Shown here piece by piece: positions 23,302 to 64,000 of a DNA stretch of 64,000 nt. The DNA comes from Escherichia phage vB_EcoM_D4: sequence record PP886228; one strand, 5' to 3'. Within the stretch, counting starts at the first letter, position 1. The number at the start of each line of letters is the position of its first letter. A program made the translations under genes and the position numbers. Under the pieces are notes generated by a model. That model saw only the letters and a list, made by a program, of their open reading frames with translations. It was not told the DNA's origin and did not search any database.

Positions 23302-26001
23302 TTAGTGTACTTCAAGCCAGCTTTTACCAACCTTACCAGTACCTGTTACAAGTGTTTCTTTCTTAAGACCTAAGTTCTTAGAAGCTTGCCCATAATACCA
23401 GTCAGTAACTGCTTTCACTTCTGCCGTCATACTTTCTGGACATTCCCAACTCGTTTCATCGTGATATGCGCAGAGCAAGCGAGCACCAATAGCTGGTTGA
23501 CGACCATTCAACTTCATCAAACCTTCGTCAATCATACGACGACAAGCAAGGTTAATTGCCTCATTTTGAATCTGAGCCTCTGAACCCATCAAAAGATAGT
23601 TCAACAGTTTGTGTGGAGATTTACACCACAACCAAGCTCCAGCAACCTTTACAAAACCCCCTTTAGAGATTGCAGCAGTCTTACCAAACACCTCTTCAAG
23701 TGCTTTTTTAGTCGCTTTGTAGTCAGCTTCCAAGTCATCAAGCAGCTTCTTAATTTTAGGCAAACGAATAAAGTAAGTCTGTTTAGTCAGTGCACCTTCC
23801 TGAGTAGTTGCAGCTTTAATCGTCTTAGCAAACTTCTCATCACCTGCACCGAACAGCAGTGCATAGATACCATTCTTAGCTTTCTTACGACCCTTACTAA
23901 TCTCATGAAGAAGATTCTCATCCTGAGTAGCTCGGCAAGTCAAGATATCCTGCTCATCATTCAAGCTAAAGTAAATACTGTTCAGTGTGTGTGCATCAGT
24001 CCCTGAATAGACAACGTAAAGGTCATTCTCAGAGTCATAGCGTAGGTACTTATCAATCTCTGGATTGAGGTACTCATCAAAGTGTTTGCAGTAATAGCGT
24101 CCATCTTCTTGACGAATAAACTCAATCTCTTCTTTACCTTGCGTTACCGCTTTGGTGAAGTCTTTGTCACCCATAAAGTTACAAAGAAGAACTAGCTGGG
24201 CTGAGTTCATGTCTACAGAGACAACGTTAGTACCTTCTTCACAAATCCACACTGCCCTCATTGGTTCCCCATAGACAGCAGCACCAGACGGTACGTTTAC
24301 AATACCATACTGTGTCATACGCCCAGTTGAAGTACCAAATACCATTGCACCAGCACTAAGGCGACCATCAGGACGAATCTGGTTCAGCCAACCTTTTTCA
24401 TCATCCTTTGAGTTCTCAATAGTTCTGCGTCGGTGCATCAAAGTATAGTACTTAGCAATCTTCTGTCCAAGCTCACCTTCAATCGTATCATAAGATGATT
24501 CAGTAAGCTTTGGTGAAGTCCTAATCAGACAAGGTTCAAGTAAATCTGTGTACTTCTTCACAGACCAGTTATGCTCAATGTACTGGACACCTTCATGTTC
24601 AACATAACTCAACCCACACCGTTCAACCATCTCCTGCCACTTAGGATGCTTTGTAATCATCTTTTTGTTGTCTTTGAAACGACAAACTTTGACAGGGCGA
24701 CCGTCTGAATCTTTCTTGTAGTTCCAGTCATCTGGAATCCAACCAACTGATTTCAAATAGTCTTTAACAACTGCTACCTGAGTCATACGAGAAACTTCGA
24801 ACTCAATTGGTGTATATGGTGCATCAATCAAACCTGTGTAGCGACTTGACTCAAGCTCAAAGTGGTTAACAACATGGCTGTTATAGTACTTCACAGTTTT
24901 AACTGTTTTTACTGGCTTCCAATCTTTGCATTTCTTACCAATCTTTGCATTCAACTCATTGCAAATTGCACGAGCATCCTTCATTGCTACAAAACCTTCC
25001 TTGTACTCTTCACCAGTTACAGAGTTGGTTGGTGTATAGCAATTCCGCTTTTCAATGTTAAAAATCTTTGTAGTTGGCTTACCAAATGGCTTGATTTCAT
25101 ATGTCTGCATCTCACCGTTACGTACCTGCTGACGATACTTTGTCTTAGGGTACTTGGTAATTCTCTTCAATCCATCTGCATGCCCGAATGCTTCAACATA
25201 CTCATTCCAAGCTTTTGCAAACTCTTCTCCAGTGACTTTACCTTTGGTCTTAATAGTTGGTGGAAGGTGTGGTTCAACTTCTGAAGCAAGCTCATTAGTC
25301 AACTTGTCAAGTTCCTTTACATGAAACTCCATAAGTTCTTTATCAGCTTTCCAACCATTGATAGCTTGTTGACTCATCCAGAAAGATGTTTCTTTAGCTC
25401 GCATGTAGGTTTCATAAGTATCTACGCCACACTTCTTCAGCTTGAGATATTCATTATCCAGTGCGCGTTTAGTTTTGGCGTTAATACGGATATCTTCTAC
25501 AACACGAGTGAAGATTTCTGCATTCCACACACCCCAATGTTCAATCTCTGGTTTACGTACACCAACACGAGCACCCCATGCTGCCAAGCCATGAGCGCCT
25601 TTATAGCCTTTTGGAGTTGGTCTATCCATCCACTGAACACGAGACTGGATAAGAGAATCCTGAAAGAAATTACTCCACGGCTTACACTTTGGATTATCAA
25701 AGTTCCACAAATCAGGTGCAATGTGATTGAAAACCCACCAGTCATATCCCAGACCATTATGGATGCAAAGTCGTTTTGCCTTTAACGCAAACTCAACACC
25801 TTCACGCAAGCCACCCTTAATGTACTTGGTATACTTGTGACCGAGGATAGGTTCATCTGTAAAGACCCATACAGGCGGCTCTTCATCGTCAGATTTATAG
25901 TCTGCGAAAGCCATTACGTGCACTTTAGTGAACTCAAGGAGTAAACCATCAGTTTCTGTATCACCAACTAAATGTAAGTTTTTAAAATCTACGTTTTCCA
26001 T
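23302..26001 (-). CDS. DNA polymerase, family A (Pol I-like) with 3'-5' exonuclease
   Basis: Exo motif DTETDGL; polymerase motifs RKKAKNGIYALLFG (motif B-like) and YHDE (motif C); start set at ATG 26001 (MENVDF) with SD gagggag. Confidence 0.8.
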   Translation of the reverse strand: MENVDFKNLHLVGDTETDGLLLEFTKVHVMAFADYKSDDEEPPVWVFTDEPILGHKYTKYIKGGLREGVEFALKAKRLCIHNGLGYDWWVFNHIAPDLWNFDNPKCKPWSNFFQDSLIQSRVQWMDRPTPKGYKGAHGLAAWGARVGVRKPEIEHWGVWNAEIFTRVVEDIRINAKTKRALDNEYLKLKKCGVDTYETYMRAKETSFWMSQQAINGWKADKELMEFHVKELDKLTNELASEVEPHLPPTIKTKGKVTGEEFAKAWNEYVEAFGHADGLKRITKYPKTKYRQQVRNGEMQTYEIKPFGKPTTKIFNIEKRNCYTPTNSVTGEEYKEGFVAMKDARAICNELNAKIGKKCKDWKPVKTVKTVKYYNSHVVNHFELESSRYTGLIDAPYTPIEFEVSRMTQVAVVKDYLKSVGWIPDDWNYKKDSDGRPVKVCRFKDNKKMITKHPKWQEMVERCGLSYVEHEGVQYIEHNWSVKKYTDLLEPCLIRTSPKLTESSYDTIEGELGQKIAKYYTLMHRRRTIENSKDDEKGWLNQIRPDGRLSAGAMVFGTSTGRMTQYGIVNVPSGAAVYGEPMRAVWICEEGTNVVSVDMNSAQLVLLCNFMGDKDFTKAVTQGKEEIEFIRQEDGRYYCKHFDEYLNPEIDKYLRYDSENDLYVVYSGTDAHTLNSIYFSLNDEQDILTCRATQDENLLHEISKGRKKAKNGIYALLFGAGDEKFAKTIKAATTQEGALTKQTYFIRLPKIKKLLDDLEADYKATKKALEEVFGKTAAISKGGFVKVAGAWLWCKSPHKLLNYLLMGSEAQIQNEAINLACRRMIDEGLMKLNGRQPAIGARLLCAYHDETSWECPESMTAEVKAVTDWYYGQASKNLGLKKETLVTGTGKVGKSWLEVH

Positions 26002-26061
26002 TTTTACTCCCTCTAAAATCATTAACCTCATACATTACTGCAAAAAATTATAAAAAGCAAG

Positions 26062-26130
26062 TTGACAATGTACTTGACAAGGTGTTAATCTTTGCGAAGT
26101 GGGTTTTTACTTAAAAGGTTACTTAACAGT
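26062..26130 (+). promoter_or_regulatory. conserved element with tandem TTGACA boxes
   Basis: TTGACAatgtacTTGACAaggtg...; near-identical element at 61513-61580. Confidence 0.4.
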
Positions 26131-26197
26131 TTAACTATACAGATACTTTAAAACTCTTAAAAGATTATTTAATAGCTTTTAAAAAGCTTTAAAGTAT

Positions 26198-26214
26198 AAC
26201 GTATAGAATACGTT
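26198..26214. promoter_or_regulatory. perfect palindrome AACGTAT-aga-ATACGTT (operator-like)
   Basis: 7-bp inverted arms separated by 3 bp in the divergent region between polymerase and + block. Confidence 0.35.
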
Positions 26215-26258
26215 AAGATAAAAGATTAAAACTTAATAGTTACTTAAAAGAGGCTTAC

Positions 26259-26681
26259 ATGCAGAAAATGTTTGTTCACCCAGACATAGCTAACTTTGTT
26301 AGGGCTTTGCAGAAGTTGGAAGAACTTGACATTGCTGCTCAACGGGAATATGCTCACCATCACAGGAGAATGGTTGATATACAACATGAAATAGAGTTGT
26401 CTGAAAACTATGAAGATGACTTAAAATGCTCTGTATTTGAGCATATGAAAGATGTTGCTACAGCGAGACGTAAAGCTAAAGACACAGTTGCTTTACTAGA
26501 TTCTCTTAAAAAGAGGTTGCAAAGTGGTACAGACCTGTGTAATCTAGCGTCACTGATTAACGATGTTGAAACTTCTTGGGATAGACATTACTATCCACGT
26601 TCTGAAAAGACACTTGACTTTTCTTCATCAGAAAACTTAAAATGTTCTAGAAAGAAACTTAACCAACTGAGAGAGAAATAA
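26259..26681 (+). CDS. hypothetical protein
   Basis: 140-aa ORF, first gene of + block. Confidence 0.4.
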   Translation: MQKMFVHPDIANFVRALQKLEELDIAAQREYAHHHRRMVDIQHEIELSENYEDDLKCSVFEHMKDVATARRKAKDTVALLDSLKKRLQSGTDLCNLASLINDVETSWDRHYYPRSEKTLDFSSSENLKCSRKKLNQLREK

Positions 26682-51976: not shown

Positions 51977-51998
51977 GGCTGCTTCGGCGGCCTTTTTT
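51977..51998 (+). terminator. rho-independent terminator
   Basis: ggctgc ttcg gcggcc then TTTTTT. Confidence 0.55.
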
Positions 51999-52000
51999 AT

Positions 52001-52028
52001 TTGTATTTTGTGCAGAGTGCTGTATAAT
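52001..52028 (+). promoter_or_regulatory. promoter with consensus -10
   Basis: TATAAT at 52023-52028 with TG just upstream; weak -35 TTGTAT at 52001-52006. Confidence 0.35.
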
Positions 52029-53768: not shown

Positions 53769-53791
53769 AGGCTCCTTCGGGAGCCTTTTTC
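53769..53791 (+). terminator. rho-independent terminator
   Basis: ggctcc ttcg ggagcc then TTTTT. Confidence 0.6.
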
Positions 53792-53809
53792 ATTTCAGGA
53801 GATTGTTAA

Positions 53810-54157
53810 ATGACATTTAAAGAGTTCTGTCAAGCTACTTTCATAATTGTTTTCTTAGTTGGGGCAGGTGTCTGGGGAGGATACTCTTACAGAGACTACC
53901 AAGTTGCTGAAGCTGAGTTAAGCAATGAGAAACTAATAAGTGTTGCTAAAGATGCTTATCAGGAAGGTTTAGCCACACTCAGCACCAATTACAAAAATGA
54001 TTTGAAAGATGTGCTTGCTAAGAATAAGCACACAAAAGAGGTACTAACATATGAAAAGACTAAGCCAGAGTTTTATAATGTTTGTGTTACTGATAATTAT
54101 GTCAGGGTGTTCAACGAACAAAGTGAACAGTACATTCAAAAACTCCCAAGTAAGTGA
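53810..54157 (+). CDS. inner-membrane spanin-like protein
   Basis: N-terminal TM helix then charged helical periplasmic region; overlaps lipoprotein ORF in another frame. Confidence 0.4.
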   Translation: MTFKEFCQATFIIVFLVGAGVWGGYSYRDYQVAEAELSNEKLISVAKDAYQEGLATLSTNYKNDLKDVLAKNKHTKEVLTYEKTKPEFYNVCVTDNYVRVFNEQSEQYIQKLPSK

Positions 54158-55614: not shown

Positions 55615-56400
55615 ATGGGTATTGTAAAAATCATCAATGGGGATATCTTCTCCGCATTTGATAAAGGTAAGTTTGATATCATTGGTCACGGTTGCAACTG
55701 TATGAACTTAATGGGTGCAGGTATCGCTGCCAAGATTTCTAAACTTTACCCAAAAGCATATGAGACCGATACAGAAGTTTATCTGTATGCAGGTGGTATA
55801 GGCCACAAACCCTGTGAAAATTTACTAGGTAATTTCTCTGTAGCACGTTTAGAACAAGGCCGTATAGCTAACCTTTACACTCAGCTTAAGACTGGTAAAG
55901 ATGCCCGATACAGTGCTTTAGAGTCATCTTTGAAACAGCTTAACAGATACTGTGAAGTCAATCAGTTGAAGAAAGTTGGGTTACCTATGATTGGTGCAGG
56001 TATCGGTGGACTAGACCCTCAAGCCGTCGCAGTTATCATTAATCAGGTGATGAAGAGTGTAGATGTGTATCTGTATGTCTACGAAGGCGAGATGTACCAC
56101 AAGTTACGCTCAGGTTGGAAGAACTACTGTGAACCAGAATACTTTGCAGGTGTAGTAATGTTCACAGATGATACAGTTACCCTCTTCAGACGAAGAAAAG
56201 GTAAGATACATCAAAGTAACCCTCCGGTTGAGAAGATGTCTCTAAGTAACGCTCTAGTTACCCACCTGTCGAAGAGCAATCACAGAATTGCAGTAACATT
56301 TGGCAGTGATGCAGATACATATATCTATGCAAGAACTGATGAGGATGTTGAGGAAATTTTCTCTTCACCGGAAGTTACCTTCTTAGACGCAAAGAACTAA
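55615..56400 (+). CDS. macro-domain (ADP-ribose binding/hydrolysing) protein
   Basis: N-terminus IINGDIFSAF...DIIGHGCNCMNLMGAGIAAKI matches macro-domain NGDIT / G-rich loop layout. Confidence 0.5.
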   Translation: MGIVKIINGDIFSAFDKGKFDIIGHGCNCMNLMGAGIAAKISKLYPKAYETDTEVYLYAGGIGHKPCENLLGNFSVARLEQGRIANLYTQLKTGKDARYSALESSLKQLNRYCEVNQLKKVGLPMIGAGIGGLDPQAVAVIINQVMKSVDVYLYVYEGEMYHKLRSGWKNYCEPEYFAGVVMFTDDTVTLFRRRKGKIHQSNPPVEKMSLSNALVTHLSKSNHRIAVTFGSDADTYIYARTDEDVEEIFSSPEVTFLDAKN

Positions 56401-56469
56401 GAAACTCTGTAGAATATTCACAATAGACTAAGCCTTTCTTATCTGGTAAATTTTTCAGGTAAGGAGGGC

Positions 56470-56660
56470 TTTTTCATTTCAGGATTGTGCAGGCAGAGTT
56501 CTGTAGAGAAATCTGTAGAGAAAATTTTGAACTCCAAAGAGAAAATTCATTTTCAAACTGTGCAGGTAATCTCCAAAGAGCTTTTTCATTTTCAAAACGT
56601 GCAGACCCCGCTCAGGTCGGGCAAGAAAAATCATTTTAGAATTGTGCAGGTAGGTGGGTG
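56470..56660 (+). repeat. direct repeat array of about 40-45 bp units ending in GTGCAGG
   Basis: ttcatttcaggattgtgcagg, ttcattttcaaactgtgcagg, ttcattttcaaaacgtgcaga, tcattttagaattgtgcagg, plus ctccaaagag x2 and tctgtagagaaa x2. Confidence 0.6.
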
Positions 56661-56828
56661 CAGGTGGGGATGTCGCCATTTCTCACAAGGCTACCACATC
56701 TGGAAATAAAAGTCAACAGAAAAATTTGTAGCGGATTGAAAAATAATTCTTGATTATAGTTCTGTTTTGTGGTAGTCGCGTGCGCCCGTTTCATTACAGT
56801 TTTTGCAAAAATATTTTTAAAATTTTTC

Positions 56829-56857
56829 TTGACTCTCTGACTATGGTTATTTAATAT
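56829..56857 (+). promoter_or_regulatory. sigma70-type promoter heading the small-gene array
   Basis: TTGACT, 17-bp spacer, TAATAT; followed by ATCAACGGGG leader hairpin and conserved RBS. Confidence 0.55.
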
Positions 56858-56917
56858 TTGCATCAACGGGGGGCGATGACCTCCCAGCTAACTAACCTTA
56901 AACTAGGAGATTCAAAA

Positions 56918-57298
56918 ATGGCTTATCGTGCACCTAAATTCATCAACAAAGACAACTTTCGCAACGTACTGGAGAAGGCACTTGATGAAAAATTTAACGG
57001 TAAAATAATTGTTGTTCATGCGTTCAATTTCAAGTATGATATCAACGGGAATAAAATCAACCATTACACGGCAACCATGTTAGATGGTACGCTATCAAGT
57101 GAAAAAGCCGTACTGAATGCACTGGCAGGACGTGGTAAAAACCTGATAAAATGCGATAAGAGACGTTATCAGGGCGGCGCATATGGTTACGATGATGCTG
57201 TTTACCATCTTGAAAATATGGGCTATTCAGTGGAAAAAGCTGGAATATCTCAAATAATCGGCAGTGACGGCTATGTGACAATTTTCAAAATTAACTGA
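56918..57298 (+). CDS. array gene 1, hypothetical
   Basis: Start at ATG following conserved ctaggagattcaaaaATG; 126 aa. Confidence 0.45.
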   Translation: MAYRAPKFINKDNFRNVLEKALDEKFNGKIIVVHAFNFKYDINGNKINHYTATMLDGTLSSEKAVLNALAGRGKNLIKCDKRRYQGGAYGYDDAVYHLENMGYSVEKAGISQIIGSDGYVTIFKIN

Positions 57299-57306
57299 TA
57301 AAGTAC

Positions 57307-57341
57307 TTTACAAGGGGCTTATAGTTCGATAAAGTAAGCCC
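57307..57341 (+). promoter_or_regulatory. class-B promoter/hairpin module
   Basis: TTTACA, 17-bp spacer, TAAAGT; palindrome ggggctta...taagcccc spans spacer and -10. Confidence 0.45.
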
Positions 57342-57386
57342 CAGATAAAGAGCTTTACCACTAAATCCTAAATTGGAGATTCTAAA

Positions 57387-57644: not shown

Positions 57645-57652
57645 TAAAGTAC

Positions 57653-57687
57653 TTTACAAGGGGCTTAAAAGCTGATATCTTAAGCCC
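57653..57687 (+). promoter_or_regulatory. class-B promoter/hairpin module
   Basis: TTTACA, 17 bp, TATCTT; palindrome ggggcttaa...ttaagcccc. Confidence 0.45.
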
Positions 57688-57734
57688 CAGATAAAGAGCT
57701 TTACTACATTAACCTTAAACTAGGAGATTCAAAA

Positions 57735-58247: not shown

Positions 58248-58256
58248 ATAGATTTC

Positions 58257-58290
58257 TTTACACGGGGCTATCAAGCTGATAAGATAGCCC
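58257..58290 (+). promoter_or_regulatory. class-B promoter/hairpin module
   Basis: TTTACA, 17 bp, TAAGAT; palindrome ggggctatc...gatagcccc (compensatory arm changes). Confidence 0.45.
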
Positions 58291-58336
58291 CAGATAAAGA
58301 GCTTTATTAACTAACCTTAAACTAGGAGACTCAAAA

Positions 58337-59323: not shown

Positions 59324-59328
59324 AGTAC

Positions 59329-59363
59329 TTTACAAGGGGCTTATAGTTCGATAAAGTAAGCCC
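59329..59363 (+). promoter_or_regulatory. class-B promoter/hairpin module
   Basis: Identical to module at 57307. Confidence 0.45.
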
Positions 59364-59408
59364 CAGATAAAGAGCTTTATCACTCAATCCTAAATTGGAG
59401 ATTCTAAA

Positions 59409-60124: not shown

Positions 60125-60159
60125 CTTTACAAGGGGCTTATAGTTCGATAAAGTAAGCC
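60125..60159 (+). promoter_or_regulatory. class-B promoter/hairpin module
   Basis: Identical to module at 57307. Confidence 0.45.
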
Positions 60160-60206
60160 CCAGATAAAGAGCTTTACCACATTAATCCTAAACTGGAGAT
60201 TCAAAA

Positions 60207-61668: not shown

Positions 61669-61815
61669 ACTAAATAAAGTCCTTAAACTAGGAGATTCAA
61701 AAAATGAACAAGTTCAAAGCTATCAACTTCATTCGTTCCCCCCCCACTAAATAAAGTCCTTAAACTAGGAGATTCAAAAAATGAACAAGTTCAAAGCTAT
61801 CAACTTCATTCGTTC
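61661..61815 (+). repeat. tandem duplication (78 + 77 bp) of leader-RBS-start codon segment
   Basis: Segment from poly-C tract through ...atgaacaagttcaaagctatcaacttcattcgttc occurs twice back to back; copies differ by one C. Confidence 0.8.
61704..61754 (+). pseudogene. truncated 16-codon duplicate of array gene 12 start
   Basis: MNKFKAINFIRSPPTK then stop; created by the duplication. Confidence 0.5.
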
Positions 61816-63017: not shown

Positions 63018-63369
63018 CGTCTATGTAATAGCCTCTATACAATCCCTTTCCTTTCCTTTCCAGAATCTTACTAGACCTTAAAAGCAATAACTCTATAGTC
63101 TACTCTATAATCTCTTATCAAATCAACTTAAATAAAAGCCCATAACCCGAAAGGGAAGGGTAACCGTTTAAACGCTCTATAAAGCTCTATAACAGCCTTA
63201 TCAACCTAACTTAAGGGATTGCATTAACTCACCCTAAAAAGCCCTTTATAAAGCTTCCTAGAGCCTTAAAAGAATCTTATAAGGGTGTAAGCTTTATTAT
63301 CTCGTTAGTTCCTTGTGAATAACTAGAAAGGGCTTGTTAGTGTCTTAAAAGTATGTTATAGGGGCTATA

Positions 63370-63413
63370 AAGTTACTTCAAAGTTACGTAAAAGTGGTTT
63401 AAAAGTTACGTAA
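63370..63413. repeat. repeated palindromic GTTACGTAA motif
   Basis: aagttac x3, with two full copies of aagttacgtaaa 22 bp apart. Confidence 0.5.
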
Positions 63414-63433
63414 ATGCTAGCCCCCTTAACATT

Positions 63434-63515
63434 TTCTTAACAATTTCTTAACAACCCCTACATAGTTATGCTTGTTAGCAACTTGTTAGCCCCTTGTTAA
63501 ATCTCTGTTAAAACC
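63434..63515. repeat. convergent TGTTAAG-family iterons
   Basis: ttcttaaca x2 (inverted orientation) facing cttgttagc, cttgttagc, cttgttaaa, ctgttaaaa. Confidence 0.55.
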
Positions 63516-63715
63516 ACGTAAAAGCCTTGTAAGAGTCTTTAGCATAGCCTTTAAAGCCCCTGTAAAGCCCTATAAATAGCTTTCTGTATAGTTGGGGTGT
63601 AATTACTAGGGAGAGACTAAAAAGAGCTTATAAGGAGCTATAGAAAGCTTTTAAGAGGGCTATTTAAAAGGTCACTAAGAAAGGAAAGGGAACGATAAGA
63701 AAAGAGATAGTGACC

Positions 63716-64000
63716 ATGTTAATAGCTTGTTAAAAAGATTAAACACTTGTTAGGAACTTGTTAATTATCTTAACAAAATAACTCTTTAAAATTAACTTGT
63801 TAGCTCTTGTTAGTCATCTGTTAAGATTCTATAAAGACCATGTAGCAACTGTTAAGAAACTGTTACACCCTTGTTAGTTCTGTTAAGAATCTGTTAAGAC
63901 CTCTGAAGAGATGTTAAGAGGTTGTAAGAACTGTTAAGAGATTGTTAAGGATATTTTAAAATTCTGCAAAGGGGATGTTACAGGGATGTTAAGGGCTACC
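63716..64000 (+). repeat. direct iteron array, consensus YTGTTAAG at about 10-11 bp spacing (runs to window end)
   Basis: About 20 copies: cttgttag, cttgttaat, tctgttaag, actgttaag, gatgttaag, attgttaag, gatgttac ... Confidence 0.7.

Follow-up and report, generated by a model that had tools for sequence, protein, structure and literature searches.

The nearest described counterparts of the locus reported here are iteron origins, phage operator arrays, the marbox and the injection stop signal of phage T5. Iterons are direct, asymmetric repeats of about 20 bp in theta-type plasmid and phage origins such as P1 oriR, RK2 oriV and pPS10. Arrays of operators are found, for example, in lambda (OL/OR) and in phi29 (p4 sites). 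The marbox, whose consensus serves here as a lead, is a 20-bp asymmetric site bound by monomers of MarA, SoxS or Rob. The T5 injection stop region contains inverted repeats, palindromes and eight paired DnaA boxes in a ~10 kb terminal repeat; the first-step-transfer DNA of this phage amounts to 7.9%, and its end is marked by a large untranslated repeat region that is conserved (Davison, bioRxiv 10.1101/866236).

Our locus is an array of direct repeats, no description of which was found in the literature searched; the Felix O1 genome paper, whose repeat list is confined to 24 bp and longer, does not mention it. The window, that is, the whole stretch analysed, is the right 64 kb of an 89.4-kb Felixounavirus genome. 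It contains four direct copies of TCATTTY-N6-GTGCAG, all on the + strand, upstream of a block of early-gene cassettes, as the original prediction had claimed. The copies match TCATTTYNRRANNGTGCAG with 0 mismatches at 56474-56492, 56547-56565, 56586-56604 and 56631-56649. The start of the third copy had been predicted exactly, those of the other three (given as 56473, 56546 and 56629) were 1-2 nt off, and the intervals are 73, 39 and 45 bp instead of the supposed 40-46 bp. All remaining matches to TCATTTYNRRANNGTGCAG within the window have 2 mismatches. At up to 2 mismatches, 6 matches were observed in the window against 0.43 expected, a test which is partly circular because the pattern was taken from these same copies. 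A weight-matrix scan of the entire genome provides a check independent of this count: the four sites attain 25.1-29.5 bits, and no other position exceeds 14.7 bits, a level that shuffled sequences reach as well. Further, a repeat search recovered the motif family as two direct-repeat groups (D1 and D2). The array is thus the sole array of its motif in the 89.4-kb genome. On its own, GTGCAGG shows only slight enrichment in the window (10 occurrences, 5.3 expected), so it is the full unit that matters and not the heptamer. The dispersed motif in the non-coding DNA of this genome is a different one, CTTAAAAG, with 24 copies against 4.9 expected. The array motif is not dispersed, which argues for a single-locus signal and not for a general promoter element; a general or phage-specific promoter class was ruled out, as there are no more strong sites in 89 kb.

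Each site is composed of an A5 or T5 tract, TCATTTT, six variable bases and GTGCA(G/T). It is asymmetric and two-part, with the two conserved blocks ~11-12 bp apart, centre to centre. Unit 1, TTTTTCATTTCAGGATTGTGCAGG (56470-56493), was recognized by repeat search, pattern and weight matrix (25.1 bits). The 73-bp gap that follows it harbors TCTGTAGAGAAA as a tandem repeat of two copies (56500-56523, + strand, found by TRF), partly kept in relatives. Unit 2 with its leader, CTCCAAAGAG-AAAAT-TCATTTTCAAACTGTGCAGG, occupies 56532-56566 and scores 29.5 bits; unit 3 with its leader, CTCCAAAGAG-CTTTT-TCATTTTCAAAACGTGCAG, occupies 56571-56604 and scores 27.9 bits. Both interleaved pairs that had been noticed before, TCTGTAGAGAAA at 56500-56523 and CTCCAAAGAG at 56532 and 56571, are therefore real, and so is the GGTAGGTGGGTGCAGGTGGGG end of the array. 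Unit 4 with its leader, GTCGGGCAAG-AAAAA-TCATTTTAGAATTGTGCAGG, lies at 56616-56650 (28.3 bits). Its leader is of the type found in Kolesnikvirus units (GGTCTGGCAAGAAAAATCATTTT). A G-rich + strand tract, GTGCAGGTAGGTGGGTGCAGGTGGGG (56644-56668), holds a lone extra GTGCAGG without the TCATTTT half.

More than 500 bp of this compact genome are non-coding here: the array stands behind the intrinsic terminator of a macro-domain gene and ahead of the first promoter in the block of early-gene cassettes. The macro-domain gene (55615-56400, + strand, 261 aa; Pfam Macro PF01661, E = 4e-8) is the last one of a rightward rII-to-macro transcription unit, and its homologue is always directly upstream of the array in Mordin, Roscha1, Felix O1 and two distant contigs, L033 and L247. 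Its terminator (56430-56471, + strand, terminator scan) has a 17-pair stem with G-U pairs, is annotated as rho-independent in phage ASO1A and has a 3' arm, CAGGTAAGGAGGGCTTTTT, that is invariant across 8 genomes. The T-tail of this terminator doubles as the T-tract of unit 1. Downstream of the array, an A/T-rich block, AAAAGTCAACAGAAAAATTTGTAGCGGATTGAAAAATAATTCTTGATT (56708-56755, + strand), is near-invariant in Felixounavirus and Mooglevirus. The first sigma-70-like promoter of the cassette block, TTGACT-17-TAATAT, was predicted by promoter scan at 56829-56857 (+ strand), preceded by an A/T-rich region, and ASO1A has a promoter annotated at the equivalent place. The 60 bp from 56799, which form the upstream part of this promoter, belong to the least stable 0.3% of the genome. 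The nearest predicted promoter is 170-350 bp downstream of the array, and the promoter scan predicted no promoter-like site within the array itself. The physical genome end is formed by a direct terminal repeat of 581 bp at 63420-64000; positions 1-581 of the record equal its last 581 bases. Direct terminal repeats were reported for this phage set by PhageTerm (PMC11737134), and a 581-bp repeat was reported for Felixounavirus Pr103Blw (PMC8303462). The array is 7.35-7.53 kb inside the right genome end, which corresponds to 8.2-8.4% of the 89.4-kb DNA, and a terminal-repeat or packaging site was ruled out because the terminal repeat is 6.8 kb away.

The original prediction had counted absence of the motif from related genomes as a point against its reading; the motif is found in related genomes. 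An array of 3-5 copies is present at the equivalent position, from macro-gene terminator to first early promoter, in the following lineages: Felixounavirus (I14.1-like phages, Felix O1, Si3 and others), Mooglevirus (Mordin, 3HA14), Kolesnikvirus (Roscha1, phi63_307, Coenus) and the two uncultivated contigs of 85-88 kb. The contigs are collinear in genes with our phage, their macro proteins are only 34-37% identical to its own, and blastn with L033 found nothing similar among Ounavirinae records. In Mordin, a motif scan of the first 45 kb shows the same picture, with no other array. The TCATTTT and GTGCA half-motifs are kept in at least five lineages, while spacers, spacing (73/39/45, 75/41/45 or 37/37/39 bp), copy number, leaders and flanks change. 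When 26 distinct Felixounavirus and Mooglevirus sequences are compared, invariant columns make up 38 of 76 in the cores and 29 of 108 in the spacers (odds ratio 2.7, p = 0.002, without correction for relatedness). When the inter-gene region was compared by blastn with Erwinia phages, the matches consisted of the array units alone (query bases 146-248). No other non-coding signal at the border of the early-gene block is as well conserved as the array. Individual units have been lost or mutated in some relatives (Si3, VpaE1, wV8 and L247). In Felix O1, Si3, Mooglevirus and Kolesnikvirus, a tract that is C-rich on the + strand replaces GTGCAGGTAGGTGGGTGCAGGTGGGG. Behind the array, the distant contigs have ~180 bp of DNA that is very rich in A/T and carries TTAACA-type repeats, some of them 15-22 bp apart.

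A fifth, weaker site, TTATTTGTATTTTGTGCAG, is present at 51997-52015 on the + strand, where it merges with the T-tail of the rIIB terminator (51977-51992). It accounts for the tgtgcag that had been pointed out at 52009, upstream of a TATAAT, and it is kept in relatives; its Mordin orthologue scores 18.9 bits. The site ends 7 nt before the TATAAT at 52023-52028 and overlaps the -35/spacer region of the promoter that starts the rII-to-macro transcription unit, whose terminator adjoins the array. In 7 sequence variants, ATTTG, TGTGCAG and TATAAT are kept and the stretches between them vary, as is typical of an operator or activator site. The fifth site is absent from Kolesnikvirus Roscha1.

Several classes of elements were considered and rejected. 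The region was originally said to have no ORF, which holds in the sense that no ORF is conserved, whereas a mechanical search gives ORFs of 50-74 aa on either strand, and three hypothetical CDS are annotated across the region in one GenBank record. The longest ORFs of the window, Mordin, 3HA14 and Kolesnikvirus differ in strand and frame, and the motif falls in frames 1/2/2/2, 2/2/1/1, 0/0/2/2 and 1/2/0/0, respectively. A coding repeat or small ORF with a repeated peptide was ruled out by these shifts within and between genomes. Of the two possibilities raised originally, the regulator-site array gained from the conserved half-motifs and from the fifth site on a promoter; the small structured RNA did not. 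Folding was compared with shuffled sequence (z = -0.26 for the + strand, +0.01 for the - strand), the best Rfam matches reached 16-19 bits against gathering scores of 39-172, and many close relatives have lost the sole local hairpin, which forms between units 3 and 4. A structured small RNA or riboswitch-like element was rejected on these grounds. Serial weak terminators were also rejected: a real stem exists at unit 1 only, the CTC-CAAA-GAG stem has 3 bp, and the stem of units 3-4 is not conserved.

No DnaA box (TTWTNCACA, up to 1 mismatch) was found inside the window units, and such boxes are not enriched. On the - strand, the units of the window (ACCTGCACA) differ from the box at 3 positions and those of Kolesnikvirus (CTATGCACA) at 1. 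A DnaA-box cluster was ruled out, as the supposedly free base is invariant and the final A variable. The array shows no 10-11-bp AA/TT periodicity (36th-55th percentile) that would indicate phased A-tracts or curvature. GTGCA-N8-TANNNT occurs at chance level, and inspection by hand for sigma-70 promoters inside the units, none of which were predicted, revealed weak, inconsistent -10-like hexamers. Palindromic operators of lambda type do not fit units that are asymmetric, in an array without promoter-like sites; the fifth site alone overlaps a promoter. A search of 185,579 species genomes for two adjacent units returned only unrelated tandem repeats in non-enterobacterial taxa, and no meaningful match to the array was found among PLSDB plasmids. 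These scans lend no support to the idea that the motif comes from a host or a plasmid. IMG/VR, scanned more loosely with a single unit, gave chance single matches only. In a comparison by eye only, the IHF, Fis, CRP, OmpR and Fur consensus sequences gave no convincing fit to the units.

We suggest that the array is probably a DNA-level element bound by protein. In the overall explanation which we tentatively prefer, its 3-5 units are same-orientation sites for one asymmetric, sequence-specific DNA-binding protein, of phage or host origin, that controls transcription at the junction to the early block. Transcription control as the actual job of the array is a somewhat more doubtful part of the proposal. 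The spacing of the two blocks and the asymmetry of the site would fit a monomer or two-domain protein in contact with two successive major grooves per site. The presumed complex would assemble at a fixed place, beginning on the T-tail of the terminator that closes the rII-to-macro unit, and would stand 170-350 bp ahead of the first strong promoter in the terminal block, which consists of small early genes. If the same protein also occupies the -35/spacer of the 52.0-kb promoter, then the rII-to-macro unit is bracketed by sites at its promoter and just beyond its terminator. The array might serve as polar roadblock or insulator, or offer the site at 52.0 kb a reservoir or looping partner, or do both. 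The conservation of the half-motifs in at least five lineages, together with the fifth site on a promoter, supports a binding array indirectly. The motif is missing from the other early-cassette promoters in the weight-matrix scan, which counts against the overall explanation; the distance to the nearest predicted promoter and the lack of the fifth site in Kolesnikvirus stand on the same side. Pfam and PHROGs recognized no DNA-binding domain in 30 proteins of the neighborhood, the cassettes and the replication region. Further, the spacings of 37-45 bp are out of helical phase, which argues against strictly cooperative binding on the same face.

The main rival is a replication origin, a less likely reading in which the units are iterons for an initiator that opens nearby DNA, while the GC-rich tract, the A/T-rich block and the promoter complete the origin. 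The array does consist of at least three direct, asymmetric repeats in one orientation, 17-22 bp long as iterons should be, at a single locus per genome. The large non-coding gap, the deep conservation of the array and the order of GC-rich tract, A/T-rich block and strong promoter agree with such a reading, as does the A/T-rich, repeat-bearing DNA behind the array in the distant contigs; and no origin for this phage group is described in the literature searched. However, the replisome is T7-like: a Toprim+DnaB_C primase-helicase adjoins a 909-aa ORF, taken as DNA polymerase from the Bas63 gene table. T7 replication starts from transcripts at promoter-plus-AT-rich origins and not from iterons. 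Neither an initiator/Rep nor a DNA-binding domain was recognized in the macro protein and the first nine to ten cassette proteins (Pfam, PHROGs), the units lack DnaA boxes, and their spacing is irregular and without regular helical phasing in all three patterns given above. In DNA stability the region does not stand out at the scale of 100-150 bp, and the 3' part of the array ranks near the top (99th percentile of the genome). The least stable 100-150 bp, with tandem TTGACA promoters, are at 26.0-26.26 kb; they separate the presumed polymerase gene from the primase-helicase operon and would make a better origin candidate. The + strand GC skew drops from ~0.13 to ~0.05 past the array, where an origin would raise it, although this is weak evidence.

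An element acting in RNA, with units and C-rich tract serving as binding, processing or Rho-loading sites on read-through transcripts, or as a small RNA, is improbable. It would explain why every unit is in sense orientation of the flanking genes, why the U/A-rich units begin at a terminator tail and why most lineages carry a C-rich, G-poor tract just downstream, which we take to resemble a Rho utilisation site. Nevertheless, folding no better than that of shuffled sequence on either strand, lack of an Rfam match and of a predicted promoter to drive a small RNA all speak against it. The C-rich tract is swapped for a G-rich one in the window's own subgroup, a Rho-loading site would leave the invariant GTGCA unexplained, and the fifth site is in promoter DNA, upstream of the likely transcription start. 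We consider it just as improbable that the units are a non-functional relic, decayed tandem duplications of a terminator tail with its flank, kept by descent. In this phage, terminator tails commonly read TTTTTYATTT (51993, 53786, 56470), so part of the motif could come from duplicated tails and not from selection for binding. Several unit leaders resemble orphan 3' arms of terminator stems, e.g. GGAGGGGTTTTT and GAGCTTTTT, and the loss of single units mentioned above would be expected of a relic. Yet GTGCA and TCATTTT survive where the DNA around them can no longer be aligned, conservation is higher in core than in spacer columns, and the array alone of the inter-gene region matched Kolesnikvirus genomes by blastn. 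It is rare for a compact phage genome to retain 200 bp of neutral DNA. Very improbable is a polar DNA-protein barrier that delimits the right-terminal 8%, either as a T5-like entry pause or as a one-way barrier to transcription or replication; if it were true, Felix O1-type phages would represent a second, independently built case of staged delivery or compartmentalised early expression. Its narrower form, a DNA-entry stop, we regard as the most improbable of all: the right-end 7.4 kb, with its small early genes and strong host-type promoters, would be the first DNA to enter and to be expressed, and the array would hold up further entry. By analogy to T5, the array bounds a terminal block of 8.2-8.4% of virion DNA and the small ORFs of this block, with its gains and losses of cassettes, are less conserved than the untranslated repeats; in Felix O1, expression of several genes of the block peaks at 5 min (PMC3185647). 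On the other hand, no two-step injection is reported for this group in the literature searched, no function, and hence no A1/A2 equivalent, was recognized among the first ten cassette proteins, the inverted repeats, palindromes and paired DnaA boxes of the ~10 kb T5 repeat contrast with direct repeats only, and the 8% figure may be a coincidence.

 Felix O1-type phages are widely used in Salmonella typing, biocontrol and therapy. The array offers a concrete 19-bp probe for the protein that reads the motif, and this protein, if identified, would expose an early/late switch or an origin of the whole phage subfamily. Engineers who swap the neighboring dispensable cassettes would then learn which 200 bp to leave undisturbed. 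On the origin, cis-regulatory sites, direct repeats and transcript maps of this phage group, nothing relevant was found in the literature searched, and the Felix O1 genome paper states that the means by which transcription is timed are not known. The PhageMaP essentiality data for Felixounavirus Bas63 are gene-level and not informative on an intergenic array.

With the T5 injection stop signal the array shares a large conserved region of untranslated repeats that bounds a terminal block of ~8%, small early genes with host-type promoters and repeats better conserved than ORFs; it differs in having four direct repeats without DnaA boxes, outside the 581-bp terminal repeat. Like iterons, its direct repeats are asymmetric, ~20 bp long and confined to one locus per replicon, their two-part conservation would fit a two-domain monomer, and GC-rich and A/T-rich stretches are close by. 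Classical iterons, however, are contiguous or spaced at ~22 bp, whereas here the spacing is 37-45 bp (with one gap of 73-75), unphased, and the array has neither DnaA boxes nor an adjacent initiator gene nor DNA similarity to any PLSDB plasmid, in a phage with a primase-helicase of T7 type. The marbox likewise combines a GCAC block, matching GTGC of the motif, with an A/T block about one helical turn away, and unit 3 has CAAAACGTG in common with the mar operon marbox. Nevertheless, the A/T block of the array is offset by ~1 bp, ~9 of 14 specified consensus positions fit, and the base after GTGC is invariant in the array and free in the marbox. Classical phage operators are palindromic and overlap their own promoters, unlike the asymmetric units of the array, 170-350 bp from the nearest one. 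Still, the array resembles operator arrays in its clustered sites within a non-coding control region between transcription units, the site at 51997-52015 does overlap a promoter, and array and fifth site together recall the long-range partner sites OL and OR of lambda.

No conserved gene lies in the 517 bp that run from the end of the macro-domain gene (55615-56400, Pfam Macro) to the first cassette gene, which starts at 56918. Here TCATTTYNRRANNGTGCAG occurs four times on the + strand (56474, 56547, 56586 and 56631), with spacings of 73, 39 and 45 bp. The original prediction had described four copies and interleaved repeats and was right in this; its first interval (actually 73 bp) and the starts of three of the four units, which were 1-2 nt off, are corrected here. 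An intrinsic terminator (56430-56471) leads into the array, its T-tail being the T run of unit 1, and an A or T run precedes every core. CTCCAAAGAG leads units 2 and 3, TCTGTAGAGAAA is found twice inside the long first gap, between units 1 and 2, and unit 4 is followed by G-rich sequence that includes a single orphan GTGCAGG.

Constant parts of the site are TCATTTT and GTGCA, with six variable bases between them and an A5 or T5 tract before. The two blocks lie approximately 11-12 bp apart (centre to centre), the site lacks dyad symmetry and all copies point in one direction. From this geometry we infer that one protein or a two-domain monomer might contact two successive major grooves. Units are not spaced by whole helical repeats, and no phased A-tract signal was found in the array. 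A weight matrix derived from 12 sites in three genera gave the four units 25.1-29.5 bits in a scan of the whole 89.4-kb genome; all other positions scored 14.7 bits or less, the level of shuffled genomes. A motif array at one place per genome suggests a job performed once per genome.

The original prediction implied that the motif should recur in related genomes, and it is indeed present at the same position in Felixounavirus, Mooglevirus, Kolesnikvirus and two uncultivated contigs; in several lineages this position is constantly after the macro-gene terminator. Felix O1 and most Felixounaviruses carry four copies spaced by 73/39/45 bp, Si3-type Felixounaviruses three (75/45 bp), and Mooglevirus (Mordin, 3HA14) four (75/41/45 bp). 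Kolesnikvirus (Roscha1, phi63_307, Coenus) has four good copies ending in GTGCAT and a degenerate one on the terminator tail, at 37/37/39 bp. The uncultivated contigs of 88 and 85 kb (L033, the same as L246, and L247) have four to five copies, some degenerate, at 36-38 bp within pairs. Macro proteins of these contigs share just 34-37% identity with that of the window, and blastn with L033 gave no similarity to Ounavirinae records; tblastx shows its genes in collinear order with those of the window genome. No array was found in T4-type phages with a homologous macro gene.

In an alignment of eight genomes, invariant columns cluster on the 3' arm of the terminator, on a downstream A/T-rich block and, within each unit, on TCATTTT and GTGCAGG. 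In a set of 26 distinct sequences, invariant positions make up 50% of core columns versus 27% of spacer columns (p = 0.002, relatedness ignored). Further, when the inter-gene region was compared with Erwinia phages by blastn, the array units were the sole match (query bases 146-248). No individual copy is indispensable: a few genomes (VpaE1, wV8, L049, L247) carry a mutated unit or have lost one.

On either strand the array is spanned by mechanical ORFs (50-74 aa), which some records annotate. Because the spacings (73, 41, 37) are not multiples of three, motif copies occupy different reading frames, within one genome and between genomes, and the longest ORFs vary in strand and frame from genus to genus; we thus rejected the array as a gene. 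The original prediction offered either a binding-site array for a regulator or a small structured RNA locus. The latter did not survive: folding of 56472-56700 gave z = -0.26 (+ strand) and +0.01 (- strand), an Rfam search of the array region returned no match near the gathering score, and the sole local hairpin (GACCCCGCTCAGGTCGGGC) is swapped for GATAAAAATCAGGTCGGGC in many close relatives. Judged from sequence, the array is likely to be a protein-binding element acting at the DNA level, which leaves the former proposal favoured.

A weaker fifth site, TTATTTGTATTTTGTGCAG (51997-52015), is fused to the rIIB terminator T-tail and separated by 7 nt from a perfect TATAAT downstream; its orthologue in Mordin scores 18.9 bits. 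Seven sequence variants (Felixounavirus and Mooglevirus) all keep ATTTG, TGTGCAG and TATAAT but differ in the five and seven bases that separate these; in Kolesnikvirus the site is absent. As this promoter starts the transcription unit that ends at the array, the unit has motif sites at either end, with 4.5 kb between them, and a protein on the fifth site would cover the -35/spacer part of the promoter. The TTTTTYATTT half is a frequent terminator tail in this phage, and the link between fifth site and array is therefore suggestive rather than strong. A third terminator tail, TTTTTCATTTCAGGAG (53786-53812), is near-identical to the start of unit 1 and is followed at once by the ribosome-binding site of the Rz-like spanin gene; terminator tails in this phage thus often have the form of the motif's left half.

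In most lineages the array is followed downstream by a C-rich + strand tract, replaced in the window's subgroup by a G-rich one of the same length. A conserved A/T-rich block (56708-56755) and a promoter, TTGACT-17-TAATAT (56829), follow. Four metagenomic records (L019, L027, L037 and L054; IMG/VR, metagenome 3300045988; three genomes of ~89 kb and one 52-kb contig) end in or just past the array region. Three of the four stop in the C-rich tract, and one continues into Nextera adapter sequence CTGTCTCTTA. Such ends probably arose where sequencing or assembly broke off at a poly-C tract prone to G-quadruplexes, though a true discontinuity in the DNA is conceivable.

From the first promoter to the terminal repeat there are small genes with no recognised function, several of which peak in expression at 5 min in Felix O1 (PMC3185647). 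Cassettes are gained and lost among close relatives; phage skuden, for example, has an extra 285-bp cassette directly after the first promoter. An unannotated 68-aa cassette gene (MMYSRELMVTT...; skuden, L002 2040-2330, versus window 56860-56918) is present in many relatives and missing from the window phage, a cassette gain or loss adjoining the array. Five cassette junctions (57300-57386, 57650-57734, 58250-58336, 59325-59408, 60125-60206) share one module: TTTACA, a GC-rich hairpin containing TAAAGT, AGATAAAGAGCTTTAC and a GGAG ribosome-binding site. It is similar to the promoter-stem-loop cassettes by which small genes are shuffled in T4-type phages. Its 10-mer AAAGAGCTTT is also found in array unit 3.

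The record opens and closes with the same 581 bases, which correspond to window 63420-64000; the window is thus the right 64 kb of virion DNA, ending at the right direct terminal repeat. Direct terminal repeats were reported by PhageTerm for the vB_EcoM_D4 phage set (PMC11737134), and a 581-bp repeat for another Felixounavirus (PMC8303462). Across 56300-57000, identity is 100% to Escherichia phage vB_EcoM_I14.1 (PP892526.1) and 92-97% to most other Felixounavirus records listed. The GenBank taxonomy line of PP892526.1 (Demerecviridae/Tequintavirus) is wrong, since its announcing paper and every relative, like the sequence, place the phage in Felixounavirus. A 76-nt tandem duplication (61669-61744) is missing from the otherwise identical PP892526.1. 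Within it lie a poly-C run, a ribosome-binding site and the opening 11 codons of a 176-aa gene at 61781; it could be genuine variation or else an assembly error arising at the poly-C run.

The Felix O1 genome paper lists repeats only from 24 bp upwards, does not mention the array and notes that it is not understood how transcription is timed. A literature search on Felix O1-type phages found no origin, repeats or transcript maps, curated records leave the region unannotated or mark the terminator and promoter alone, and the paired motif was not found in the bacterial genomes and plasmids scanned. Taken together, this suggests an undescribed instance of a familiar type of element, a clustered direct-repeat, putative protein-binding array in a phage control region.

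Having weighed the possible functions, we tentatively choose a protein-binding boundary or regulatory array with a role in transcription control, with origin iterons next. Such control is favoured by where the array lies, at a terminator/promoter junction, and by the overlap of the fifth site with a promoter; however, the nearest promoter is 170-350 bp away and other early promoters lack the motif. That the units are iterons of a replication origin is rather unlikely. An origin would fit the direct asymmetric repeats, the strong promoter, the flanks that are first GC-rich and then A/T-rich and, in the distant contigs, the very A/T-rich repeats beyond the array, but the phage primase-helicase is T7-like, no initiator gene was recognised near the array and the units contain no DnaA box. 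Moreover, the 3' half of the array is unusually stable DNA, GC skew changes across it in the wrong direction, and the genome's least stable stretch of 100-150 bp lies elsewhere, at 26.0-26.26 kb. This divergent non-coding region (26000-26260) is flanked by a 909-aa ORF (23302-26031), presumed from the Bas63 gene table to be the DNA polymerase, and by the primase-helicase operon. It carries tandem TTGACA promoters, along with three repeats that contain CTTAAAAG, and is a better candidate for the origin than the array. The octamer CTTAAAAG itself occurs 24 times window-wide (4.9 expected), with clusters at 26110-26250, 61573 and 63077-63655, and is concentrated in non-coding DNA, including that around the terminal repeat. 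It is a dispersed motif separate from that of the array, possibly a regulatory or promoter-associated signal.

A packaging site was ruled out by the distance from the array to the terminal repeat. By analogy with phage T5, the array might also mark a stop in DNA entry, which we consider very improbable. The T5 element is built quite differently, although the proportions invite comparison: the first-entering DNA of T5 amounts to 7.9% (10.1101/866236), and here 8.2-8.4% of the DNA lies beyond the array that bounds it.
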